Shown here in pieces: positions 5,784 through 58,579 of a stretch of 64,000 nucleotides of DNA. Each line of letters begins with the position of its first letter. Positions within the stretch are counted from its first letter, which is position 1. Under the pieces are notes generated by a model. It did not search any database. It worked only from the letters and a program-made list of their open reading frames with translations, and was not told the origin of the DNA. The stretch lies in assembly GCF_054482525.1 (NCBI RefSeq), contig NZ_CM137006.1; one strand, 5' to 3'. A program made the position numbers and the translations under genes.

Positions 5784-6724
5784 CCGTGTTCTCCCACGCT
5801 TTTTTGCTGATGCTTGTGGAACCACATTATCGGCACAATTAGCAGCAGCAACATGATGATCGCTACCGCTGAGGCCACCGGCCAGTCGCGATTGTTAAAG
5901 AACTCCTGCCATAGCACGCGCCCGATCATGATGCTGTCCGGGCCACCGAGCAGTTCAGGGATCACAAACTCGCCCACAGCCGGGATAAACACCAGCATCG
6001 ATCCGGCAATAATCCCGCCTTTGGTCAGCGGCACGATCACAGTAAAGAACGTTTTCAGCGGTCTTGCACCGAGATCCAGTGCCGCTTCCACCAGCGAATA
6101 ATCAATACGAATCAACGCGGTATAAATCGGCAGCACCATAAACGGCACATAGGCGTAAACAATGCCAATATAAACGGCCAGATTGGTATGCAGAATGGTC
6201 AGAGGTTGATCGATAACCCCCAGCCACAGCAGAAAATTATTCAGCACGCCGTTATTTTTTAATATTCCCATCCAGGCATAAACGCGGATCAGAAACGAGG
6301 TCCACGACGGCAGGATCACCAGTAGTAATAAGATATTACGGGTCGAGGGCTTACTGTGCGCCACCGCCCACGCCAGCGGATAGCCGATCAGTAAACAGCA
6401 AATAGTCGAAATCGCCGCCACCTGTAGCGACTGGAGATAAGCATCGAAATAGAGCGGATCGTCGGTCAGTTGCAGGAAATTACCGAGATTAAGAGTGATG
6501 GAAAGTTGCCCGTCAGCCCACTCCATCAGTTCGGTATAAGGTGGAATGGCGCGCGCCATCTCCGCCAGGCTTATTTTAAAAACGATCAGAAATGGCAGCA
6601 GAAACAGCAGGATTAGCCAGATATAGGGCAGCGCAATCACCAGTTTTCGCCCATGCTTCATTTGCAACTGCGACAGCCACAGCTTAAAGGGTTTTGGCTG
6701 GGCAGCAGGTTCAAGTGTACTCAT
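5780..6724 (-). CDS. potH: Putrescine ABC transporter permease PotH
   Basis: 314-aa permease; GGAG ribosome-binding site 8 nt upstream of the ATG. Confidence 0.88.
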   Translation of the reverse strand: MSTLEPAAQPKPFKLWLSQLQMKHGRKLVIALPYIWLILLFLLPFLIVFKISLAEMARAIPPYTELMEWADGQLSITLNLGNFLQLTDDPLYFDAYLQSLQVAAISTICCLLIGYPLAWAVAHSKPSTRNILLLLVILPSWTSFLIRVYAWMGILKNNGVLNNFLLWLGVIDQPLTILHTNLAVYIGIVYAYVPFMVLPIYTALIRIDYSLVEAALDLGARPLKTFFTVIVPLTKGGIIAGSMLVFIPAVGEFVIPELLGGPDSIMIGRVLWQEFFNNRDWPVASAVAIIMLLLLIVPIMWFHKHQQKSVGEHG

Positions 6725-6733
6725 CTTTGCTCC

Positions 6734-7867
6734 TTAAACCGTCAGCACCACACAGCTGTCCACTTCCCAGCACAAACGCACTTCGTCGCCCCAGGTCGGT
6801 AACCCTTTACGATGACGATGGGCGTTTTGTAGCTGGGCGCTAATCATCTGCCCACTTTTCAGACGAACGTGATACACCGAAAGATCGCCGAGATAGGCAA
6901 TGTGTATCACCTCCCCCACCGCGAAGTTACAACCATTGGCGGGCGGCTCTTCGCAAAGCATGATTTTTTCCGGACGCAGCGCTACGTGTACCGGCACGTT
7001 ATCAACCACTGAAGCATCTGCATCGACTTTCAGTGGGTGCACCAGTCCCGGCGAATAAAGCACCAGACCATCTTCCTGACGCTCTTTGAGTACACCTTCA
7101 AAGACATTAACCGAACCGATAAATTCAGCGCTATAGCGGGTGGTCGGATGCTCATAGATCTCTTCCGGTTCGCCAATCTGGACAAATTTCCCGCGATTCA
7201 TAATGGCGATACGCCCCGCCATGGTCATCGCCTCTTCCTGATCGTGAGTAACCATCACGCAGGTCACACCGACGCGCTCCAGAATATCCACCACTTCAAG
7301 CTGCATCCGGTCACGCAGCTTTTTATCCAGTGCGCCCATCGGCTCATCGAGCAGTAATAGTTTCGGGCGCTTGGCAAGGCTTCGGGCCAGTGCCACACGC
7401 TGTCGCTGACCGCCGGAAAGCTGATGCGGTTTGCGTTTGGCGAACTCCTGCATATGCACCAGCCCGAGCATCTCATTGACCCGGCTGGCAATTTCCGCTT
7501 TCGGCAATTTGTCCTGTTTCAGGCCAAAAGCGATATTCTGTTCCACGGTCATATGCGGAAACAGCGCGTAAGACTGAAACATCATATTGATGGGGCGCAG
7601 GTAAGGCGGTACCTGTGACAAATCGACGCCATCGAGCATAATCTGCCCGACAGAAGGTTGTTCGAAACCTGCCAGCATACGCAGCAGCGTGGACTTGCCA
7701 CAGCCGGATGCGCCCAGCAGCGCGAAGATTTCACCTTTGTAGATGGTCAGGCTGACATCATCCACCGCATGTTGACCATCGTAGGATTTGGTGAGGTTGC
7801 GGATTTCTAATAGCGGCGTCAGCGCCTTACGGGTTTTCGCCTGCGGGCGAGGGATAGCGTCATTCAC
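6734..7867 (-). CDS. potG: Putrescine ABC transporter ATP-binding protein PotG
   Basis: 377 aa; Walker A GASGCGKST and ABC signature LSGGQRQR. Confidence 0.9.
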   Translation of the reverse strand: MNDAIPRPQAKTRKALTPLLEIRNLTKSYDGQHAVDDVSLTIYKGEIFALLGASGCGKSTLLRMLAGFEQPSVGQIMLDGVDLSQVPPYLRPINMMFQSYALFPHMTVEQNIAFGLKQDKLPKAEIASRVNEMLGLVHMQEFAKRKPHQLSGGQRQRVALARSLAKRPKLLLLDEPMGALDKKLRDRMQLEVVDILERVGVTCVMVTHDQEEAMTMAGRIAIMNRGKFVQIGEPEEIYEHPTTRYSAEFIGSVNVFEGVLKERQEDGLVLYSPGLVHPLKVDADASVVDNVPVHVALRPEKIMLCEEPPANGCNFAVGEVIHIAYLGDLSVYHVRLKSGQMISAQLQNAHRHRKGLPTWGDEVRLCWEVDSCVVLTV

Positions 7868-7998
7868 GGCTGCTCTCCGGCATTGAATGTGTGCAAGCGC
7901 ACCATAATGGTGCGAATTGCCGGCGGGTGTGGTGCGCCTGTCCGGCAGATTAATTTGTCGCAGAACGTCTATTGCTGGCTATCTGTAGGCTGGAACCA

Positions 7999-8038
7999 TC
8001 CCCTCTCCCCTTTGGGGAGAGGGTTAGGGTGAGGGGAA
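7999..8038. repeat. Box C-like intergenic repeat, copy 1
   Basis: tcccctctcccctttggggagagggttagggtgagggg; a near-identical copy lies at 61451-61487. Confidence 0.5.
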
Positions 8039-8071
8039 GCCCCGTCATACCTGTTCAGCAATCTGAACTGA

Positions 8072-9184
8072 TTATTTTCCGCTCTTCACTTTGGTCCACG
8101 CGCGGGTGCGCACACGGTCTATTTTTGGATCCTGCACTTTCAGAGTGAACAACTTCGCACGAACGTCCGCCGGAGGATAAATCCCTGGATTATCACGCAC
8201 TTCCGCGCTTACCAGCGGCGTAGCTTCTTTGTTCGCGTTGGCATAGAACACATGGTCGGAAATATGCGCCACCACATCCGGGCGCAGCAGGTAATTCAGG
8301 AATTGATAGGCTTCGTCTTTATTTTTGGCATCCGCAGGCATGGCGAAGACATCAAAGAACGCCATCGCCCCTTCTTTCGGAATCGAGAACGAGACATTAA
8401 CGCCATTCTTCGCTTCCTTCGCGCGGTTTGACGCCTGCCAGACATCGCCCGCCCAGCCAATAGCGACGCAGATATCGCCGTTTGCCAGGTCGTTAATGTA
8501 TTGAGATGAATGGAAATAACGAATGTTCGGGCGCAGCTTTAACAGCAGATCGGTTGCCGGTCCGGTGTAATCATCTGCTTTAGTGCTGTTGGGATCTTTA
8601 CCGAGATAATTCAGCACGGTAGCAAACACTTCTTCCGGTGCATCAAGGAAAGAGACACCGCAGCTTTTCAGTTTTTCCAGATTTTCAGGTTTGAGGATCA
8701 AGTCCCAGCTATCGACGGGCGCGTTTTCGCCCAGCACCGCTTTGACTTTATCGACGTTATAGCCAATCCCGGTTGTCGCCCACATATAGGGCATAGCAAA
8801 TTTATTATCCGGGTCGTGTTTGGCAACCAACTTCAGCAGTTCCGGGTCGAGATTCTTCCACTCCGGCAATTTGCTTTTGTCCAGCGGCTGGAAAACTCCC
8901 GCAGTCAACTGGCGTTCAAGAAAGCTTGCTGACGGCACCACCAGGTCAAAGCCGGTGCTACCCGCCATTAATTTGCCTTCCAGTACTTCGTTAGAGTCGA
9001 AAACATCGTAGACGACTTTAATACCGGTTTCTTTTTCAAAATTGGCCACCGTGTCCGGGGCGATATAATCAGACCAGTTATAAATGTGGAGTGTTTTTTG
9101 TTCAGCCGCGAGCGTACCGACAGAGACGGCCATCAGAGCACCCGCAACCAGACCCGATAGCCATTTTTTATTTAAGGCGGTCAT
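8072..9184 (-). CDS. potF: Putrescine-binding periplasmic protein PotF
   Basis: Start at MTALNKKWLSG gives 370 aa with signal peptide. Confidence 0.9.
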   Translation of the reverse strand: MTALNKKWLSGLVAGALMAVSVGTLAAEQKTLHIYNWSDYIAPDTVANFEKETGIKVVYDVFDSNEVLEGKLMAGSTGFDLVVPSASFLERQLTAGVFQPLDKSKLPEWKNLDPELLKLVAKHDPDNKFAMPYMWATTGIGYNVDKVKAVLGENAPVDSWDLILKPENLEKLKSCGVSFLDAPEEVFATVLNYLGKDPNSTKADDYTGPATDLLLKLRPNIRYFHSSQYINDLANGDICVAIGWAGDVWQASNRAKEAKNGVNVSFSIPKEGAMAFFDVFAMPADAKNKDEAYQFLNYLLRPDVVAHISDHVFYANANKEATPLVSAEVRDNPGIYPPADVRAKLFTLKVQDPKIDRVRTRAWTKVKSGK

Positions 9185-9534
9185 ATCTCTTTCCTTCTGA
9201 AAGTTCGTTAACAAACGAACAAAAGTTGTCACACTGAAAGATATGCAATAAACGTGCATATTTTTTATCGGCGCGGTGTAAGAAAAGAGAACTCTCTCCC
9301 GGCCAGCACTGCTCGCTATATAAAAGCATCGCAAGAATAACTTTAGCCAGGGTTTGAGACTATAGCTCGGATTAAAAAACGGTATTTAACAAATTTTTAT
9401 GCGTATTTGCTCTATGTGATAAAGCCAAATCGGCACAAGAGAAGTGAAATAATCTTTAAGAAAAGGTTAAAAACAGCAGATAATTTTGCAGCACGCAGTC
9501 ACTGCGGCAGCGACTGCGTACTCGAAAGGAGTTA

Positions 9535-10011
9535 TCAGTGGAGGAAATAGTTTTCGGTAACGTTGTTTTGCCCTTCATCGTCAGTCGGTAACAGCAGTTG
9601 ATGGGCATTAGCTTCAAGAATGACCATCGAAATCTGCTCTTCGCTCTGACGCACGAACCATGCAAACTGCTCATAGGTTACGCCCTGCATAACGGATAAA
9701 GACTGGCAAACCACCAGCTTTGGCAGATTATCATCCTGCATATCAAGAAATGCTTTCACGGTCAGCGAACTGGCATTGATGGCTGATAAATCCGCCGCCA
9801 GCGGCAATACGGCTGAAGGTCGGACTTCCGCCATGGCAGAAAACAGGATCGTGTTATCGATCAGATCGATTTTGGCATCAAAGACACCGTCGAAATTCTG
9901 CATATGGGGCAGATGCAGAGCCTGACAGTTATCACATTCAAAAAAACTCATCCCCAGGTCATCGAGCCATTGACGCAACGTATCCAGACCAGGAACGACC
10001 AGCGATGTCAT
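9535..10011 (-). CDS. ybjN: YbjN, putative sensory transduction regulator
   Basis: 158 aa from MTSLVVPGL; synteny. Confidence 0.8.
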   Translation of the reverse strand: MTSLVVPGLDTLRQWLDDLGMSFFECDNCQALHLPHMQNFDGVFDAKIDLIDNTILFSAMAEVRPSAVLPLAADLSAINASSLTVKAFLDMQDDNLPKLVVCQSLSVMQGVTYEQFAWFVRQSEEQISMVILEANAHQLLLPTDDEGQNNVTENYFLH

Positions 10012-10098
10012 AATTTTGTACAACCTCTTTCGATAAAAAGACCGGCACAGCTTACGCAAAAAGCGCAGGCAAAACCATGATCAGTAATGTGATTGCGA

Positions 10099-11001
10099 CT
10101 AACCACCCGTTTTCAGGCAATATTCGGTCGTAGCGTGGCGTTCGATCCAGCGGATCATTTTACCCGCGATGTCGATACCGGTGGTTTTTTCTATTCCTTC
10201 CAGCCCCGGCGACGCATTCACCTCCATCACCAATGGCCCGCGATTAGCACGCAGAATATCCACACCAGCAACGTCCAGCGCCATCGTTCGCGCGGCTTTT
10301 ATCGCGATTTCACGCTCCTGTGGTGTGATACTGGCGACGCTTGCCGCGCCGCCACGATGCAAATTGGAACGAAAATCGCCCTCTTTCGCCCGCCGTTCAA
10401 TCGCCGCGACCACTTCATCCCCAACAACCAGGCAGCGGATATCGCACCCTTGCGCCTCTTTGATATATTCCTGCACCAGAATATGCGCGTTCAGACCGCG
10501 AAAGGCGTCAATCACGCTTTCCGCCGCCTGACGCGTCTCCGCCAGCACGACACCAATTCCCTGCGTACCTTCAACCAGCTTAACCACCAGCGGCGCACCA
10601 CCGACCATGTCGATTAAATCGCTGGTATCATCCGGCGAATGCGCAATGCCCGTGACAGGCAGGTCGATGCCCTGACGCGCCAGCAGTTGCATGGAACGCA
10701 ATTTGTCACGCGCCCGGGCAATGGCGACCGACTCATTGAGCGGATAGCTCCCCAGCATCTCGAACTGGCGCAGTGCCGCCGTCCCATAAAAGGTAATGGC
10801 GGTGCCAATACGCGGGATCACAGCGTCAAAATGGGGTAACTTGCGGCCTTTGTAGTGAATAGAAGACGCCGCAGGATTTATGTTCATGTAGCAAGAAAGC
10901 GGATCAAGAATTTCAACCAGGTGACCGCGCTGTATAGCGGCTTCACGCAGCCGCTTACACGAATAGAGCGTTCCATCCCGGGACAATATGGCAATTTTCA
11001 C
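10099..11001 (-). CDS. rimK: Ribosomal protein S6 L-glutamate ligase RimK
   Basis: 300-aa ATP-grasp protein. Confidence 0.9.
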
Positions 11002-11061
11002 CCTGCACCTCTCTGTCAGACCTGGTCAAAAGCCCGCGTATCATACATCGGCGTGGCGGTT

Positions 11062-11784
11062 TTAGCGCGTCGCCCAACCCTGTTTGTGCAAATAATCCAG
11101 TATAAATGGGCGGCTTTCTTTAATGATTGTTCGGCGGATATGATCGCTCCAGGTATCCCGGCGATTATTGCTGCCACGTGTGAGGTAATATTCCGCCAGT
11201 TGTTCGTCATACTGCGCCAGTGCGTCTTTATCCAGCGGTTGATAGTTGTTTTCATGCACCAAAATGGAGGCCGGTAAACGCGGCTTAAGATCCGGATTAT
11301 CCGCAGGCCAGCCAAGGCACAGCCCAAACAGCGGCAGAACATGCTGCGGTAATTTCAGCAGTTCCGTCACCGCTTCAATATTATTGCGCAGGCCGCCGAT
11401 ATATACCCCGCCCAATCCCAGCGATTCCGCTGCGGTTAACGCATTCTGCGCCATCATTGCTGTATCAACGACACCGAGCAACAGTTGCTCCGCCAGGCCA
11501 AGTTGTGCATCCGGACAGATCTGTAAATGGCGGTTAAAGTCGGCACAGAACACCCAGAACTCCGCCGCTTGCGCTACGTGTTTTTGCCCGCCGGTCAGCG
11601 TCACCAGTTCATCACGTAACGCTTTGTCGGTAATGCGAATAATGCTACTGCACTGCAAAAAACTGGAACTGGACGTCGCACGGGCGCTGTTAATAATCGC
11701 CTCACGCTGCGCTTCGGAAATGGGTTCATCAGTGAAATGGCGAATGGAGCGATGGCCACAAATAAGTTCAATGGTTGGCGTCAT
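11062..11784 (-). CDS. nfsA: Oxygen-insensitive NADPH nitroreductase NfsA
   Basis: 240-aa nitroreductase-family ORF. Confidence 0.9.
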   Translation of the reverse strand: MTPTIELICGHRSIRHFTDEPISEAQREAIINSARATSSSSFLQCSSIIRITDKALRDELVTLTGGQKHVAQAAEFWVFCADFNRHLQICPDAQLGLAEQLLLGVVDTAMMAQNALTAAESLGLGGVYIGGLRNNIEAVTELLKLPQHVLPLFGLCLGWPADNPDLKPRLPASILVHENNYQPLDKDALAQYDEQLAEYYLTRGSNNRRDTWSDHIRRTIIKESRPFILDYLHKQGWATR

Positions 11785-44630: not shown

Positions 44631-45896
44631 ATGGCTTCTACTTTTACCAGCGACACATTGCCTGCCGATCACAAAGCAGCTATCCGTCAGATGAAGCACG
44701 CGCTGCGGGCACAGCTTGGCGACGTCCAGCAGATCTTTAATCAGCTAAGCGATGACATTGCTACGCGAGTGGCTGAAATCAACGCACTCAAAGCACAGGG
44801 CGATGCCGTCTGGCCGGTGCTGTCTTATGCCGATATCAAAGCAGGTCATGTTACTGCAGAGCAGCGCGAACAGATTAAACGTCGCGGTTGTGCGGTGATA
44901 AAAGGCCATTTCCCCCGCGAACAAGCGCTAGGCTGGGATCAGTCGATGCTGGACTATCTGGACCGCAACCGCTTTGACGAGGTCTACAAAGGCCCCGGCG
45001 ATAATTTCTTCGGGACGCTCAGCGCTTCACGTCCCGAGATTTACCCCATCTACTGGTCGCAGGCGCAAATGCAGGCTCGCCAGAGTGAAGAAATGGCGAA
45101 TGCGCAGTCGTTTCTCAATCGTCTGTGGACATTTGAAAGTGATGGAAAGCAATGGTTTAACCCGGATGTGAGCGTCATCTACCCTGACCGTATCCGCCGC
45201 CGTCCGCCCGGAACGACCTCCAAAGGTCTTGGAGCGCATACCGACTCCGGGGCACTGGAACGCTGGCTGCTTCCAGCGTATCAGCGCGTTTTCGCCAACG
45301 TCTTTAATGGCAATCTGGCGCAATATGATCCCTGGCATGCGGCACATCGTACGGAAGTTGAAGAGTACACGGTGGACAACACCACCAAATGTTCCGTGTT
45401 TCGGACATTCCAGGGCTGGACAGCGCTCTCTGATATGCTGCCTGGTCAGGGGCTGCTGCACGTCGTGCCTATTCCTGAAGCCATGGCGTACGTACTGTTA
45501 CGTCCGCTGCTTGATGATGTGCCGGAGGATGAACTGTGCGGCGTAGCGCCCGGAAGAGTATTGCCGGTATCAGAGCAATGGCATCCACTGTTGATTGAGG
45601 CGTTAACCAGCATTCCAAAACTCGAAGCCGGAGACTCCGTCTGGTGGCACTGCGACGTCATCCATTCCGTTGCCCCCGTTGAAAATCAACAGGGCTGGGG
45701 CAACGTGATGTACATTCCTGCGGCACCGATGTGCGAGAAAAATCTTGCCTACGCGCACAAGGTGAAGGCCGCACTGGAAAAAGGCGCATCGCCGGGCGAC
45801 TTCCCGCGCGAGGACTATGAAACAAACTGGGAAGGACGCTTTACGCTTGCCGACCTCAACATTCACGGTAAGCGAGCGTTGGGAATCGACAGCTGA
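44631..45896 (+). CDS. ybiU: DUF1479-family protein YbiU
   Basis: 421 aa from MASTFTSD; synteny. Confidence 0.85.
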   Translation: MASTFTSDTLPADHKAAIRQMKHALRAQLGDVQQIFNQLSDDIATRVAEINALKAQGDAVWPVLSYADIKAGHVTAEQREQIKRRGCAVIKGHFPREQALGWDQSMLDYLDRNRFDEVYKGPGDNFFGTLSASRPEIYPIYWSQAQMQARQSEEMANAQSFLNRLWTFESDGKQWFNPDVSVIYPDRIRRRPPGTTSKGLGAHTDSGALERWLLPAYQRVFANVFNGNLAQYDPWHAAHRTEVEEYTVDNTTKCSVFRTFQGWTALSDMLPGQGLLHVVPIPEAMAYVLLRPLLDDVPEDELCGVAPGRVLPVSEQWHPLLIEALTSIPKLEAGDSVWWHCDVIHSVAPVENQQGWGNVMYIPAAPMCEKNLAYAHKVKAALEKGASPGDFPREDYETNWEGRFTLADLNIHGKRALGIDS

Positions 45897-46966
45897 GTGT
45901 CGTACAGCCCTTCCCGTTCCACGGCGGTGTTCCCTTTTCCTGGGCGAACCCGCCGCACTGACTCCCGCACCGCCAATCGTCCGTGCAGCAGCAGCGAGCC
46001 CACCGGAGCATCCGGGCGAATCAGCCGCTGTTGCAACATTTGCACCGCTTCATTGCCTAGCTCATCGCGTGGCACATGCACAGCCGTCAGGGGAACATCC
46101 TCGATTGCCGCAAGGTTAAAGCCGTCGATACTCATCACCGAGACATCCTGTGGTACGCGCAGACCACGACGATGTAGCGCATTTACCGTTCCCGCCGCCA
46201 TAAAATCCCCGCCGACCAGAAACGCCGTCGGCAACGTCTTGCCATTGGCGGCATCCAGCCACGCTCCGACCTTTTCTTCCGCTTCTTTAGCGCTAAAACT
46301 GCTGATATTCAGCAAATGACGGTCATGGTGAAAGGCCAGATTATGCTGACGCCATGATTCTTTAATCCCTGCAAACCGCTGCTCCATAGTGTAGCGGCGC
46401 AGGCACATCACATTCATCACCTCCCGGTGACCCATTTCAAACAGATAGCGGGCGGCGAACGCGCCAATTAACCGATGGTCCGGCGCAATCGCCGGGAGGC
46501 GCATTCGTTCATCACGGCAGTTGATCAGCACACAAGGCTTAGCGAGATCGGCGGCCAGATCATGGATGTGCGGATCGTCAATCCCCAGCAGGATCGCCGC
46601 CTGCGTATCTGCTTCATTCATCCGCGAGAGAAATAGCGCGGGATCGCTGTCAAACTCCTCCAGCGCGCAGTAACGCAGCCGCACTTCATGCGGCGATAAC
46701 GCTTTGCTGATGCTCTGGATCACACGGTAATAAAAGATATCAGATCGTTGGTCAAAAGCGCGTTGCGGCGCGAAAATAATCAGGTTGTTCAGCAACATAC
46801 GACCTGCTGCCATGCCATCCATCACGCCCAACTCACGCGCGCAGGCCAGCACCTGTTCGCGAGCGCGTGCACTGGTATTCGCTTTGCCAGCCAGCACCCG
46901 CGAAACCGTACTCGGCGATAGCCCGGTACGTGCGGCGATATCGGCGATTTTCAACTTCTTGTCCAT
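45863..46966 (-). CDS. LacI-family transcriptional regulator (accessory; absent from K-12 at this position)
   Basis: N-terminal helix-turn-helix MDKKLKIADIAARTGLSPSTVSRVLAG and periplasmic-binding-protein-like sugar-binding core; 367 aa from ATG 46966; 3' end overlaps the ybiU 3' end by 34 bp. Confidence 0.85.
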   Translation of the reverse strand: MDKKLKIADIAARTGLSPSTVSRVLAGKANTSARAREQVLACARELGVMDGMAAGRMLLNNLIIFAPQRAFDQRSDIFYYRVIQSISKALSPHEVRLRYCALEEFDSDPALFLSRMNEADTQAAILLGIDDPHIHDLAADLAKPCVLINCRDERMRLPAIAPDHRLIGAFAARYLFEMGHREVMNVMCLRRYTMEQRFAGIKESWRQHNLAFHHDRHLLNISSFSAKEAEEKVGAWLDAANGKTLPTAFLVGGDFMAAGTVNALHRRGLRVPQDVSVMSIDGFNLAAIEDVPLTAVHVPRDELGNEAVQMLQQRLIRPDAPVGSLLLHGRLAVRESVRRVRPGKGNTAVEREGLYDTQLSIPNARLP

Positions 46967-47260
46967 TTTGTGATCTGCCTCTAATTCGGAAATGACAGAA
47001 TTTTCATGAGCAAAAAAGCCCATTCTGTCTGGCATTAAATCCATTTCAGTAATGTATATCAGTCACTCATGGAAAAACGTGCACAAAACCCGCTTTCTTT
47101 CGCTTTTAGGGTCTCTTACTGTGAATTGGTAGAACAACTTCCATACAAAAATAATGGAAAAACGAACAATAAAGACTTTATTTATCAAAAAGTTAAAAGT
47201 GGTGTGACAACTCCATTCTGACGTTGCCGCACAAACCCTATACCATTCTGTGGAGTGCAT

Positions 47261-48562
47261 ATGAGTCAGGGTATCAATAACGATATGACTGCCAGTAAAC
47301 CGCGCCATATCGTCAAAAATCTGCGTTGGTGGATACTGGTCCTTTTTTTGCTCGGTGTTACTGTCAACTACATCACGCGTAACTCGCTGGGTATTCTCGC
47401 CCCCGAACTGAAAAGCAGCCTGGGGATTACCACCGAACAATATTCCTGGATTGTAGGTGCTTTCCAGCTCGCCTATACCCTATTCCAACCGTTGTGTGGA
47501 TGGCTGATTGACGTCATTGGCCTCAAACTGGGCTTTATGATCTGCGCGGGACTGTGGGCGCTGGCCTGTCTGATGCATGCGGGGGCGGGAAACTGGGTAC
47601 ATCTGGCGCTGTTGCGCTTCTTTATGGGCGGTGCGGAAGCCGCGGCAACCCCAGCAAACGCCAAAACCATCGGTGAATGGTTTCCAAAATCAGAACGCCC
47701 GATCGCCGCAGGCTGGGCAGGCGTCGGTTTTTCCATCGGTGCCATGCTGGCCCCACCGATTATCTATTTTGCCCACGCTTCATTCGGCTGGCAGGGTGCA
47801 TTTATGTTCACTGGCATCCTGGCGATGCTGTGGGTGGTGCTGTGGTGGGCGTTCTATCACAACCCGGATAAGCATCCTAACCTCAGCAAAGCCGAACTGG
47901 ACTTTATCCGCCAGGATAACGAAGCGCCCCCTGTCAAGTTACCCTTTCTGACCGCACTGAAAACCGTAGGCAAAAATAAACGCTTTTACGGTATCGCTAT
48001 CCCGGCCTTTATGGCAGAACCGGCGTGGGCGGTGATGAGTTTCTGGGTTCCGCTATACCTGTCCAAAACCTATGGCATGGACCTGAAGCAGATCGCATTA
48101 TTCGCCTGGTTGCCGTTCCTCGCCGCTGATCTTGGCAGTATTGCCAGCGGCTATCTGACCAAACTTTACACCCGCCTGTTTGGGCTGAGTCGTGTGAACT
48201 CCGTTGTCGCATCATCGGTCAGTGGCGCATTCCTGATGGTTTCGCTGGCGGTGATGGCCTTTACCAATAACCCGTATATCGCCATCGTCCTTATTTCCAT
48301 CGGCGGCTTCGGTCACCAGATCATCTCCTGCATGCTGAGCGCACTGGTGGTGGAATCCTTCGACAAAGGTCAGATGGCCACTGTTAACGGCATGCGCGGT
48401 TCTGCCGCGTGGATCGCAAGTTTCCTGTTCTCCCTGATTATCGGGGTTACCGCTGACAAAATCGGCTTTACCCCCCTGTTTATCGCCATGGGCTTCTTTG
48501 ACCTGATTGGTGCTTTCTTCCTGGTCACCTTTATTGCTGAACGTCGCGCAAAACGCGCCTGA
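47261..48562 (+). CDS. MFS transporter of the anion:cation symporter family, ExuT-like (accessory)
   Basis: About 40% identity by eye to E. coli ExuT across the N-terminal half (LAPELKSSLGITTEQYSWIVGAFQLAYTLFQP...); 12-TM MFS; start ATG 47261 or GTG 47255. Confidence 0.85.
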   Translation: MSQGINNDMTASKPRHIVKNLRWWILVLFLLGVTVNYITRNSLGILAPELKSSLGITTEQYSWIVGAFQLAYTLFQPLCGWLIDVIGLKLGFMICAGLWALACLMHAGAGNWVHLALLRFFMGGAEAAATPANAKTIGEWFPKSERPIAAGWAGVGFSIGAMLAPPIIYFAHASFGWQGAFMFTGILAMLWVVLWWAFYHNPDKHPNLSKAELDFIRQDNEAPPVKLPFLTALKTVGKNKRFYGIAIPAFMAEPAWAVMSFWVPLYLSKTYGMDLKQIALFAWLPFLAADLGSIASGYLTKLYTRLFGLSRVNSVVASSVSGAFLMVSLAVMAFTNNPYIAIVLISIGGFGHQIISCMLSALVVESFDKGQMATVNGMRGSAAWIASFLFSLIIGVTADKIGFTPLFIAMGFFDLIGAFFLVTFIAERRAKRA

Positions 48563-48576
48563 GAGTGGATGTAAAC

Positions 48577-50940
48577 ATGAAAACGCTGAAAAACTGGACC
48601 CTGCACAAACAGTCTGCCCACCACGTTGAACTGCTGGTCGATGGCCAGCATATCCTGTGCCTGTACGTGCTGGAAGAAAATCTGTTCCGCGTGCTGTTAA
48701 AACGCAAAGGCGAGCTGGCGCTGGATCGCACCTGGAGCATTGCTCCGGCGCAGGATGTGCCATGGGAAGGGCGCAGCCGCGAAGATCTCAGCGGCTTTAG
48801 CCTGCCCGCGTGGACATTGATCCAGCACGACGACACCGTGGTTATCGCCACCGAGTCACTGCGTGCCACCGTTCACCAGCCGCTGTGGCTGGAGTGGCAC
48901 TATCGTAACAACGAAGGCGAATGGCTGCCGTTGGTGAATGACCGCCCGACCAGCGCTTATCTGCTGAATGCCCACGGCGACGGCGTGGCGCACTATCAGA
49001 GCCGTCGTAAAGATGAACGCTTTTATGGCCTCGGAGATAAAGCCGGCGACCTGCAACGCAACGGTAAACGTTACGAGATGCGTAACCTCGACGCGATGGG
49101 CTACAACGCCGTTAGTACTGACCCGTTGTACAAACACATTCCATTCACCATCACCCGCCGCGATGACATTAGCTTCGGCCTGTTTTATGACAACCTCAGC
49201 AGCTGCTGGCTGGATCTGGGCAACGAGATCGACAACTACCACACCGCCTATCGCCGCTGGCAGGCGGAAGCGGGTGATATCGACTACTACCTGTTTACCG
49301 GCGAACGCGTACTTGATATCACCAAAGCCTTCGTACGCCTGACCGGAAAAACCCTGTTCGGACCGAAATGGAGCCTGGGCTACAGCGGTTCAACTATGCA
49401 CTACACCGATGCGCCGGACGCACAAAATCAGTTGATGAACTTTATCCGCCTGTGTGAAGAACATGCGATTCCCTGCGATTCGTTCCAGCTCTCTTCCGGT
49501 TATACCTCAATTAACGGCAAGCGCTATGTGTTCAACTGGAATTACGACAAAGTGCCGCAGCCGAAAGTGATGAGCCAGGCATTTCACAATGCTGGTTTGC
49601 ACCTGGCCGCCAATATCAAGCCGTGCCTGTTGCAGGATCACCCACGCTATAACGAAGTGGCAGAAAGAGGACTGTTCATCCGTGATTCAGAAACAGATGA
49701 ACCAGAACGTTCCAGCTTCTGGGATGACGAAGGTTCTAACCTCGACTTTACTAATCCGCAGACCATACAGTGGTGGCAGGAAGGCGTGACCACACAGCTT
49801 CTGGAGATGGGTATCGACTCCACCTGGAACGACAACAACGAATTCGAAGTGTGGGACGGTGAAGCACGCTGTCACGGCTTTGGTCAGACGATCGCGATCA
49901 AACATATTCGCCCGGTGATGCCACTGCTGATGATGCGAGCCTCGATGGAAGCCCAGCAACGTTTCGCTCCGGAAAAACGTCCGTACTTGATCTCCCGCTC
50001 CGGCTGCGCGGGAATGCAGCGCTATGTGCAGACCTGGAGCGGCGATAACCGCACTAGCTGGGACACTCTGCGCTACAACACCCGCATGGGTCTGGGGATG
50101 AGCCTCTCCGGGCTGTATAACCTCGGTCACGACGTCGGCGGTTTCTCCGGTGATAAGCCGGACCCGGAACTGTTTGTACGCTGGGTACAAAACGGCGTGA
50201 TGCATCCGCGCTTTACGATTCACTCATGGAACGATGACCATACCGTAAACGAACCGTGGATGTATCCGGGTGTCACTCCGGCGATCCGCAGCGCTATTGA
50301 GTTGCGCTATCGCCTGCTGCCCTACTTTTATACCCTGATGTGGCAGGCATACGCCGATGATGAACCAATGCTACGTCCGACTTTCCTTGACCACGAGCAC
50401 GACGTTCAGACTTTTGAAGAGTGTGATGACTTCCTGCTTGGTCGCGATATTTTGGTTGCCAGCGTCGTAGAGCAAGGCGAGCGCCAGCGCCGTGTATGGC
50501 TGCCAGATAACGAAACTGGCTGGTACGATTTCTACAACGGCGAATGGTTCAGTGGCGGTCAGTGGATCACCCTCGACGCACCGCTGGAGAAACTGCCGCT
50601 GATGGTGCGTGCCGGGGCTGGTCTACCGCTCAGCAAACGCATCACCTATGTGAGCGCAGAACAAGACGATACCCGCGAACTGAAACTGTTCCCGCTGAAA
50701 GGTGTGGGCACAACGTCCGGCCTGCTGTTTGAAGACGATGGCGAAAGCTGGGGCTACCAAACTGGTAATGCGCTTTGGGTGGAATGGGAAATGGTTTGCG
50801 ATGGGGCGACCATCAACCTGAAAGTCAACGCGCGCGGGGATTATCGTCCTGCATGGAGTGCACTGAAAGTGTCATTACCAGTGGAAGAAAAACGCACGCT
50901 GCTGGTCAATGGTGTTGAAGGGAGTGAATGGATGCGTTAA
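48577..50940 (+). CDS. Glycoside hydrolase family 31 alpha-glycosidase (accessory), specificity unknown
   Basis: GH31 motifs: nucleophile region STWNDNNEFE, acid/base region QTWSGDNRTSW and GHDVGGF; 787 aa from ATG 48577; 14 nt after the transporter stop (operon). Confidence 0.85.
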   Translation: MKTLKNWTLHKQSAHHVELLVDGQHILCLYVLEENLFRVLLKRKGELALDRTWSIAPAQDVPWEGRSREDLSGFSLPAWTLIQHDDTVVIATESLRATVHQPLWLEWHYRNNEGEWLPLVNDRPTSAYLLNAHGDGVAHYQSRRKDERFYGLGDKAGDLQRNGKRYEMRNLDAMGYNAVSTDPLYKHIPFTITRRDDISFGLFYDNLSSCWLDLGNEIDNYHTAYRRWQAEAGDIDYYLFTGERVLDITKAFVRLTGKTLFGPKWSLGYSGSTMHYTDAPDAQNQLMNFIRLCEEHAIPCDSFQLSSGYTSINGKRYVFNWNYDKVPQPKVMSQAFHNAGLHLAANIKPCLLQDHPRYNEVAERGLFIRDSETDEPERSSFWDDEGSNLDFTNPQTIQWWQEGVTTQLLEMGIDSTWNDNNEFEVWDGEARCHGFGQTIAIKHIRPVMPLLMMRASMEAQQRFAPEKRPYLISRSGCAGMQRYVQTWSGDNRTSWDTLRYNTRMGLGMSLSGLYNLGHDVGGFSGDKPDPELFVRWVQNGVMHPRFTIHSWNDDHTVNEPWMYPGVTPAIRSAIELRYRLLPYFYTLMWQAYADDEPMLRPTFLDHEHDVQTFEECDDFLLGRDILVASVVEQGERQRRVWLPDNETGWYDFYNGEWFSGGQWITLDAPLEKLPLMVRAGAGLPLSKRITYVSAEQDDTRELKLFPLKGVGTTSGLLFEDDGESWGYQTGNALWVEWEMVCDGATINLKVNARGDYRPAWSALKVSLPVEEKRTLLVNGVEGSEWMR

Positions 50941-57711: not shown

Positions 57712-58227
57712 TTAGAAGCGGTAACCAACACCGGCAATCCAGGTGCCTACGTCAACGCTACGAATACGGCTCTGCTCGTAAGAGAAGTCCAGAGCAACGT
57801 TTTCCATCGGGTTGAACTGCAGACCAGCACCGTAGGAGAAACCGTAGTCGCTGGTGTCGTGTTTGTAGGTCGGGTATTCAGTGGTCTGGAATTTACCATA
57901 ACCCACACCCACTACACCGTAGATGCTTGCCCAGTCGTTAATGCGGTAAGCCGGACCAGCAGTGATGCCGTAGTACTGGTTTTTGTTGTAGTCACCAGAG
58001 CTTGCAGTACGGCTTTTCTCGGTGTAAGTGAAAGAACCGATCACACCCAGCGGGCTGTTGTCTTCTTCATAGCGGTATTTCAGGTTGAAACCGCCCATTT
58101 TGTTCATTTGGCCCTGAGCGTCGCTCTGTGCGTAACCGCCAGTTACGGTAGAAGTTGCAGCTACGGAAGTACCTGCGGTGAAAGCCAGAACTGCGGCCAG
58201 TGCTGAAAGACATGCAATTTTTTTCAT
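57712..58227 (-). CDS. ompX: Outer membrane protein OmpX
   Basis: 171 aa from MKKIACLSALAAVLA; 8-strand beta-barrel with C-terminal ...GYRF. Confidence 0.92.
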   Translation of the reverse strand: MKKIACLSALAAVLAFTAGTSVAATSTVTGGYAQSDAQGQMNKMGGFNLKYRYEEDNSPLGVIGSFTYTEKSRTASSGDYNKNQYYGITAGPAYRINDWASIYGVVGVGYGKFQTTEYPTYKHDTSDYGFSYGAGLQFNPMENVALDFSYEQSRIRSVDVGTWIAGVGYRF

Positions 58228-58579
58228 AACCACCTCAAATGTGATTCAAATAAGTCCTAAGTTTTAAATATATCAAAAATTAATGGGAAACTCTTCGCGA
58301 TTTGTGATGTCTAACGGGCCATTTCATGTAACAGAACGTTTCCATACACCGCTATCCATCTAAATTTAAATCACTTTTTCAGAGAACTGCGTAAGTATTA
58401 CGCATGTTTTCCCTGTCATTCATCCAGATTATTCCTAATCACCAGACTAATGATTCCATCAATCCTGGCGCATTTTAGTCAAAACGGGGGAAAATTTTTT
58501 CAACAAATGCTCAACCAGCATTGGGTATATCCAGTACACTCCACGCTTTACTTAAGTCTAGATATTTGTGGGAGAAAGG

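Follow-up and report, generated by a model that had tools for sequence, protein, structure and literature searches.

Genomic context of the locus

The window (the whole stretch of DNA analysed here, 64,000 nucleotides of E. coli contig NZ_CM137006.1, assembly GCF_054482525.1) carries, inserted between ybiU and ybiT, an islet of three genes that encode a LacI-family regulator, an MFS transporter and a GH31 hydrolase. The regulator gene (45863..46966, minus strand) begins at the ATG at 46966->46964 and encodes 367 aa with Pfam matches to LacI HTH and Peripla_BP_3. Divergently oriented from it are the genes of the transporter, of the anion:cation-symporter type (47261-48562, plus strand, ATG at 47261), and of the GH31 glycoside hydrolase (48565-50940, plus strand), both identified by Pfam and NCBIfam matches and by the PGAP annotation. 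These two genes (47261..50940, plus strand) are presumed to form the regulated MFS-GH31 operon. The nearest solved relatives of the hydrolase are ER glucosidase II and a GH31 enzyme of Flavobacterium. At the other side of the regulator gene, its 3' end (stop at 45863) overlaps by 34 bp that of ybiU (plus strand, ending at 45896), which places the left edge of the islet inside ybiU or at its very end.

The gap between the regulator and the MFS genes (46967-47260) comprises 294 bp with 37% G+C, in agreement with an initial annotation of the window, made from its letters alone, that had described it as the AT-rich divergent control region of an accessory locus. This intergenic sequence is present in 577 of 5,426 complete E. 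coli genomes (about 11%), and all copies are chromosomal.

In order to sample the locus by species, one genome per species was scanned, which returned 80 Enterobacteriaceae loci that were oriented on the regulator. The regulator/MFS/GH31 arrangement is the same in every sampled locus spanning all three genes, and the same divergent arrangement is found in Yersinia pestis, Serratia proteamaculans and Pectobacterium atrosepticum, whose loci were fetched separately. The alignments described below contain 78 of the 80 loci together with the window, that is, 79 species of about 27 genera, with regulators 69-97% identical to that of the window. A search of the literature for the locus tags, and for ybiU/ybiT together with GH31, returned nothing relevant.

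Two database records deserve a comment. CACSKA010000002.1, labelled Chryseobacterium sp. 18061, holds a locus of the Enterobacteriaceae type with a regulator 79% identical to that of the window, and is probably a mislabelled or contaminated assembly. Additionally, NZ_CP168949.1 (E. coli IH5) carries a fragment of the intergenic sequence and a 5' part of the MFS gene amid fragments of pseudogenes (fliG, fliH, TraU and a class A beta-lactamase), a stretch that looks chimeric or misassembled.

The regulator is an ortholog of LfaR

In RegPrecise, CKO_02295 of Citrobacter koseri is listed as LfaR (regulog 4996; Ravcheev et al., 2014, PMC4052901 supplement), together with Ent638_1314, KPN_00854, ECA1966, Spro_3600 and y3231; the regulog comprises six genomes and 23 predicted sites, and is assigned to the pathway 'sugar utilization' with an unknown effector (PMC4052901). 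With CKO_02295 the window regulator shares 76% identity over 356 aa, and with y3231 55%; the alignments are co-linear and the HTH is invariant, a comparison that establishes the regulator as an LfaR ortholog. The genes presumed to be regulated correspond as well, given that the neighbourhoods of y3231, Spro_3600 and ECA1966 contain MFS_1 and GH31 genes divergent from the regulator, so that the window locus shares with Yersinia, Serratia and Pectobacterium the divergent lfaR / MFS-GH31 arrangement. It differs in that the regulog was built in silico from six genomes other than E. coli, whereas the locus described here belongs to E. coli, a species in which most genomes are without it. The regulator is distinct from CytR (95 bits against a cut-off of 436).

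In Yersinia pestis, lfaR has as neighbours, at 6324-11083 of the fetched locus, genes for DJ-1/PfpI, FBP-aldolase-family and PF10022 proteins and for a sulfatase. It is possible that these neighbours hint at an anionic glycoside being handled, or else that the neighbourhood is unrelated.

Regarding the DNA-binding portion of the protein, the recognition helix STVSRVLAGK and a hinge leucine are invariant among the orthologs. The hinge reads MDGMAAGRLL; in an alignment with PurR, the hinge leucine aligns with the Leu54 lever, and Leu is aligned to PurR Lys55.

The PGAP annotation of most E. coli records has the regulator begin at the ATG at 47023, which yields a protein of 386 aa (WP_000505359.1). 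This start is probably wrong, and the ATG at 46966 the true one, because the Met at 46966 precedes the start of the Pfam LacI HTH by six residues, because most orthologs are 357 aa long and begin at that Met, because the upstream variation, which if translated would place K, R, I or T at a single codon, defies coding constraint, and because another E. coli record carries the 367-aa form. In view of the HTH position, the orthologs and the non-conserved sequence at 47023, the N-terminal extension was rejected. The longer call has a practical consequence, in that it hides within a CDS both the upstream box O1 and the inverted repeat described below.

Two conserved boxes at fixed positions in the divergent interval

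The initial annotation had expected the operator of the regulator to lie in this interval, and had spotted by eye no palindrome of the LacI type. The first statement is consistent with our alignments and the second is not, since footprinting across the 79 species reveals two candidate boxes of the form TGNAAN-NN-NTTNCA, which we propose as LfaR operators: O1 (TGACAGAATTTTCA, 46993-47006) and O2 (TGGAAAAACGTGCA, 47070-47083). The consensus of O1 is TGAAArAATTTTCA (ATGAAAA-AA-TTTTCAT when the flanks are included) and that of O2 is TGArAAwnyTTGCA, with a variable centre. Each box has a TG and, ten bases on, a CA that are invariant in 79/79 species, and its AA/TT arm positions are near-invariant, the A5 of O2 being invariant in 79/79, while the AA at the centre of O1 is A in 76 and 73 of the 79 species. 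Mean conservation reaches 0.93 in O1 and 0.85 in O2, compared with 0.88 in the adjacent coding sequence and 0.50 in the DNA between the boxes.

The window copies of O1 and O2 fit the pattern with one arm mismatch each and a non-CG centre. In terms of the features of LacI-type operators, both boxes thus have TGNAAN/NTTNCA arms within a 14-bp core, and neither has the central CG pair. In this regard, among 1303 LacI-family motifs, the centre is CG in 1173, another sequence in 49 and degenerate in 29 (PMC4052901), which makes the central CG a typical feature of such operators and not an obligatory one (49 + 29 exceptions among 1303 family members). The AA centre and the single arm substitution in each E. 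coli copy account for the boxes having been overlooked in the initial annotation.

The positions of the boxes are as constant as their sequence. Between O1 and the regulator ATG there are exactly 26 nt, both in 79/79 species and in the three distant ones fetched separately, and the distance between O1 and O2 is 77 bp in 69 species, 78 bp in nine and 75 bp in one; despite this fixed spacing, the 63 bp of DNA between the boxes remains at background identity. Counted upstream from the regulator ATG, O1 spans 27-40 nt and O2 104-117 nt, in keeping with the range of about 30-140 bp before a regulated start codon, within which more than 75% of LacI-family sites are located (PMC4052901). O1 occupies the position where autoregulatory LacI-family sites usually lie, and 72% of the regulators of this family are autoregulated (PMC4052901). 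Counted from the MFS ATG, O2 is 178-191 bp upstream and thereby beyond the usual range of 30-140.

A position weight matrix (PWM) trained on O1 alone retrieves O2 as the top remaining match in the locus of about 10 kb, both strands included, in 72 of 78 species; in the reverse test, the O2-trained PWM retrieves O1 as the top remaining match in 76 of 78. With the joint O1/O2 matrix, a single other match of at least 13 bits is found in the 1.5 Mb of searched strand. In Yersinia, whose regulator is 55% identical to that of the window, and in Serratia and Pectobacterium, both boxes are the top two matches and their distances are unchanged. The boxes are accordingly co-inherited with the regulator, in 79/79 Enterobacteriaceae and in these three genera. 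These results show the conservation and fixed geometry of O1 and O2 and their identity as a single motif linked to the gene of the LfaR ortholog. The invariant DNA-reading head of the protein is consistent with an operator that is invariant as well.

Across the whole 64-kb window, the best match of the O1/O2 matrix is TATGAAAAAAATTGCATG (58211-58228, minus strand), where ompX, a core gene present in 5422 of 5426 genomes, has its start codon and the beginning of its signal-peptide sequence (MKKIAC). This match was rejected as a regulon member and regarded as a coding coincidence; it illustrates the low complexity of the O1/O2 motif and its richness in A/T.

The A/T-richness of both boxes could suggest that they are conserved through another protein, either a nucleoid protein on the A/T tracts or CRP at O2, where, of the 10 positions of TGTGA-N6-TCACA, a 16-mer shares 8 in 39 species and 7 in the window. 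We regard this explanation as quite unlikely. In most species no CRP-like form of O1 exists, even though the cross-PWM tests show O1 and O2 to be the same motif; the boxes accompany the regulator gene at a fixed distance in every genus, distant ones included; and what is invariant, TG-N10-CA with AA/TT arms, marks the LacI family as opposed to the TG-N12-CA of CRP. In the same line, CRP sites were sought in the aligned orthologs and no conserved full site was found; O2 and a box adjacent to the regulator gene (Box A, see below) reach 8/10 only in subsets of species. The binding of the LfaR ortholog to O1 and O2 is the reading that we follow here.

The inverted repeat of the initial annotation is specific to Escherichia

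The operator candidate of the initial annotation was an 8-bp inverted repeat, which it placed at 46993-47028. The repeat exists and is perfect, GACAGAAT-N20-ATTCTGTC, and its position is one base to the right (46994-47001 / 47022-47029). The left arm lies within O1, whereas the right arm overlaps the PGAP start codon at 47023 and one copy of the 8-mer CCATTCTG.

Dinucleotide-preserving shuffles across the whole interval, in which perfect inverted repeats of at least 8 bp with a spacer of at most 30 bp were counted, contain an equal or better repeat in 343 of 2000 cases (17%), which places the repeat at chance level. The initial annotation had itself proposed a phylogenetic footprint as the check on this candidate and had made its standing depend on conservation among orthologous loci. 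The footprint finds the repeat in 2 of 79 loci, the window and Escherichia sp. MOD1, and the candidate is therefore given up. Elsewhere (77 species), the median number of complementary positions between the aligned arms is 3 of 8, and allowing a variable spacer gives no rescue; in Kluyvera, the closest outgroup (regulator 92% identical), the repeat is already missing. The right arm has a conservation of 0.53 compared with 0.50 for the surrounding spacer, with a per-column identity to the window base of 0.10-0.68, and the conservation of the left arm results from its falling inside O1. Within the left arm, the window carries two minority bases of O1, C at 46996 (8% of the species) and G at 46998 (30%), which are precisely the bases that let it pair with the right arm. 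The inverted repeat is thus a lineage-specific chance repeat, restricted to Escherichia.

It could still be argued that within Escherichia the repeat is itself an operator, for the regulator or for another factor, given that it is perfect, that its left arm overlaps the conserved O1 and that both Escherichia sp. MOD1 and strain B1, an E. coli with a divergent allele, have kept it. However, the Escherichia sequences are 97-100% identical throughout, so that its retention there is uninformative; the repeat is missing in 77/79 loci though the DNA-reading residues are invariant, and, beyond the frequency with which shuffled sequence equals it, a gap of 20 bp does not suit a LacI-family dimer, which reads contiguous palindromes of 14-20 bp. 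Such a role is highly improbable.

The repeat might instead function at the RNA level, with a hairpin in the 5' leader of the regulator transcript that tunes mRNA stability or translation in Escherichia only. In this regard, the minus-strand sequence of 46985-47038 folds at -14.2 kcal/mol (z = -2.3), a value equalled by 5 of 200 shuffles. Against this stand the loss of the fold outside Escherichia, an unremarkable fold of the plus strand (z = -0.7) and the finding of no matching family in Rfam; the hairpin would moreover require a regulator transcript that starts upstream of it. Taken together, we judge this alternative to be very unlikely, and the repeat is treated in what follows as a product of chance.

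The 8-mer CCATTCTG occurs in three direct copies (47020-47027, 47213-47220 and 47243-47250), has its inverse ACAGAAT in O1 and is likewise restricted to Escherichia. Its repetition is marginal, given that some 8-mer is present at least three times in 6% of shuffles.

A predicted transporter promoter and other conserved elements

The initial annotation had assumed that both promoters lie in the interval. For the transporter, our alignments provide a candidate: the T, A and T of a TAnnnT pattern at 47117-47122 (plus strand, TACTGT in the window) are invariant in 79/79 species while its middle is variable, and it is the sole such pattern on the plus strand of the interval. This hexamer is likely to be the -10 of the MFS-GH31 promoter, which would have a weak -35 and a transcription start near 47129. 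The promoter of the regulator was not located, since a PWM promoter scan of all orthologs on both strands yielded no consistent -35/-10 pair for it; a consensus scan of the interval in the single sequence gave one weak match, at chance level.

The predicted -10 also has a fixed relation to the boxes, its distance to the TG of O2 being exactly 47 nt in 79/79 species and in the three distant species. With respect to the predicted MFS start, O2 would be centred at about -52 and O1 at about -130, and the core promoter would lie downstream of both. Immediately next to O2 is a conserved A-run (47085-47088), at the place expected for an UP element.

This geometry allows for a different sign of regulation, in which LfaR bound to O2 at about -52 would activate an MFS promoter with a weak -35 and repress only its own gene, via O1. 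The location of O2 upstream of the predicted core promoter, its fixed 47 bp to the -10 and the poor -35 region speak for it. However, the transcription start is only predicted, and a centre at -52.5 matches neither of the typical activator positions, -61.5 and -41.5. Moreover, to our knowledge the local sugar regulators of the LacI family are repressors. We therefore consider activation at O2 unlikely and retain repression of both units as the working assumption.

Four further elements stand out in the alignments. Box A (TTTGTGATCTG, 46967-46977, mean conservation 0.90) lies between the regulator ATG and an SD-like AGAGG (46982->46978). Its core TGTGATC, which contains GATC, is near-invariant in the 79 species and in Yersinia, Serratia and Pectobacterium, and it resembles a CRP site in one half only. 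The constraint on this box is non-coding, as the variation before the ATG would otherwise read K/R/I/T. Box D (TGGTAGAACAACTTCCATACAAA, 47127-47149, conservation 0.81) overlaps the predicted transcription start, and Box E (GTGGTGTGACAACT, 47199-47212, conservation 0.75) lies further downstream. Both Box D (ACAACTTCCATAC) and Box E (GGTGTGACAACT) are kept in most genera and replaced in the loci of Cedecea, Buttiauxella, Siccibacter, Franconibacter and Atlantibacter; in E. coli they have in common an ACAACT, the two copies being about 73 bp apart. Box D was considered as a third copy of the operator and rejected (median -5.5 bits with the O1/O2 PWM), being at most a weak right half-site. A pairing between Boxes D and E was rejected by eye, given that the variation in D occurs without compensating changes in E.

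Finally, an exact match to the IHF consensus WATCAANNNNTTR is present at 47183-47195 (plus strand, TATCAAAAAGTTA). Among the 79 orthologs this match is exact in 12 and has at most one mismatch in 38, compared with shuffle expectations of 0.2 and 5.9, respectively. The predicted fold of the MFS leader is unremarkable (z = -0.7), and no Rfam family came near its gathering score across the region.

A proposed model for control of the islet by LfaR

These findings point toward a model in which, quite probably, the LfaR ortholog would bind O1 and O2 and repress both transcription units until an inducer is present, with the inverted repeat being due to chance. A dimer of the regulator would sit on each 14-bp pseudo-palindrome (TG-N-AA-N | NN | N-TT-N-CA), the centre of which is A/T or variable. 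From O1, 26 nt upstream of the regulator start codon, autoregulation would be expected, and from O2, 47 bp upstream of the predicted -10, control of the MFS-GH31 operon. In the absence of inducer, the repressor would hold both units down; the inducer, presumably the transported glycoside or its product, would bind the repressor and cause its release. LfaR as the binding protein, repression as the sign and the assignment of the -10 are inferred. How O2 would act from about -52 is a matter of speculation, one possibility being that a repressor bound there blocks an UP-element or alpha-CTD contact at the A-tract (47085-47088). A site upstream of the predicted core promoter and 178-191 bp from the MFS ATG is unusual for a repressor, and this counts against the model. 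So do the low complexity of the A/T-rich motif, the partial CRP match of O2 and the failure of the scans to place the regulator promoter. Literature on the regulator orthologs was searched for binding, footprint or transcript data, and no report was found.

The regulon and its motif had been predicted in silico for other genomes and not for E. coli, and O1 and O2 are probably new E. coli members of it. The 23 sites reported for six genomes would correspond to a pair of sites in each genome, with every site entered once for either divergent operon. O1 and O2 are presumed to be identical with the LfaR sites predicted in RegPrecise.

When compared to the LacI/PurR-type operator TGNAANCGNTTNCA, O1 and O2 share the 14-bp core, the TG/CA ends, the AA/TT arms and the even, dimer-sized palindrome, in line with a regulator that keeps the recognition helix and the leucine aligning with PurR Leu54. 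They differ from it in the centre, which is AA in O1 and variable in O2 instead of CG. The arms of the boxes are thus ordinary and their centre is of a minority type, and the distance of O2 from the transporter gene is unusually large.

A comparable layout is known from the GalR OE/OI and the LacI O1/O3 systems, in which a regulator of the LacI family likewise uses a pair of operators separated by tens of bp, and one member of the pair precedes the core promoter (GalR OE, centred at -60.5; lac O3, at -82). In contrast to these systems, both boxes of the window lie upstream of the predicted transporter promoter, the spacing of 77 bp is non-integral in helical turns, and the C-terminus of the regulator is without an evident tetramerisation segment. 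As for CytR, its operators (AATGCAAC-N2-GTTGCATT) have the same TGNAAN-NN-NTTNCA register as O1 and O2, with an unspecified centre, and the right half of O2, TTGCA(T/C), is identical in sequence to the CytR half-site. The CytR systems differ in that the window locus has no conserved flanking tandem CRP sites.

The rigid spacing admits a further reading, which we hold to be possible though rather doubtful. From the regulator ATG over 26 nt to O1, 77 bp to O2 and 47 bp to the -10, the layout is free of indels in more than 27 genera. The boxes could mark a regulatory complex that is new for local LacI-family repressors, with two dimers upstream of the promoter, at about -52 and about -130, and an A/T centre read by its shape and not by a CpG kink. 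If true, such a complex could occlude the UP-element/alpha-CTD contact, wrap DNA or activate. The simpler model of repression from O1 and O2 remains the one that we favour.

In all, the interval is a standard control region of a divergent sugar operon, mildly unusual only in the non-CG centre and the rigid upstream spacing of its boxes, an outcome that will not surprise specialists. The analysis replaces a false operator candidate with two predicted sites, defined to the base, in an accessory sugar locus carried by about one in nine complete E. coli genomes and by many Enterobacteriaceae, and ties this locus to the LfaR regulog. Additionally, it indicates that most E. coli annotations of the regulator probably carry a wrong start codon. 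As a putative LacI-type operator that has no central CG and is held in a rigid spacing, the region may provide a small and clean system for the effects of operator centre and position within this family.
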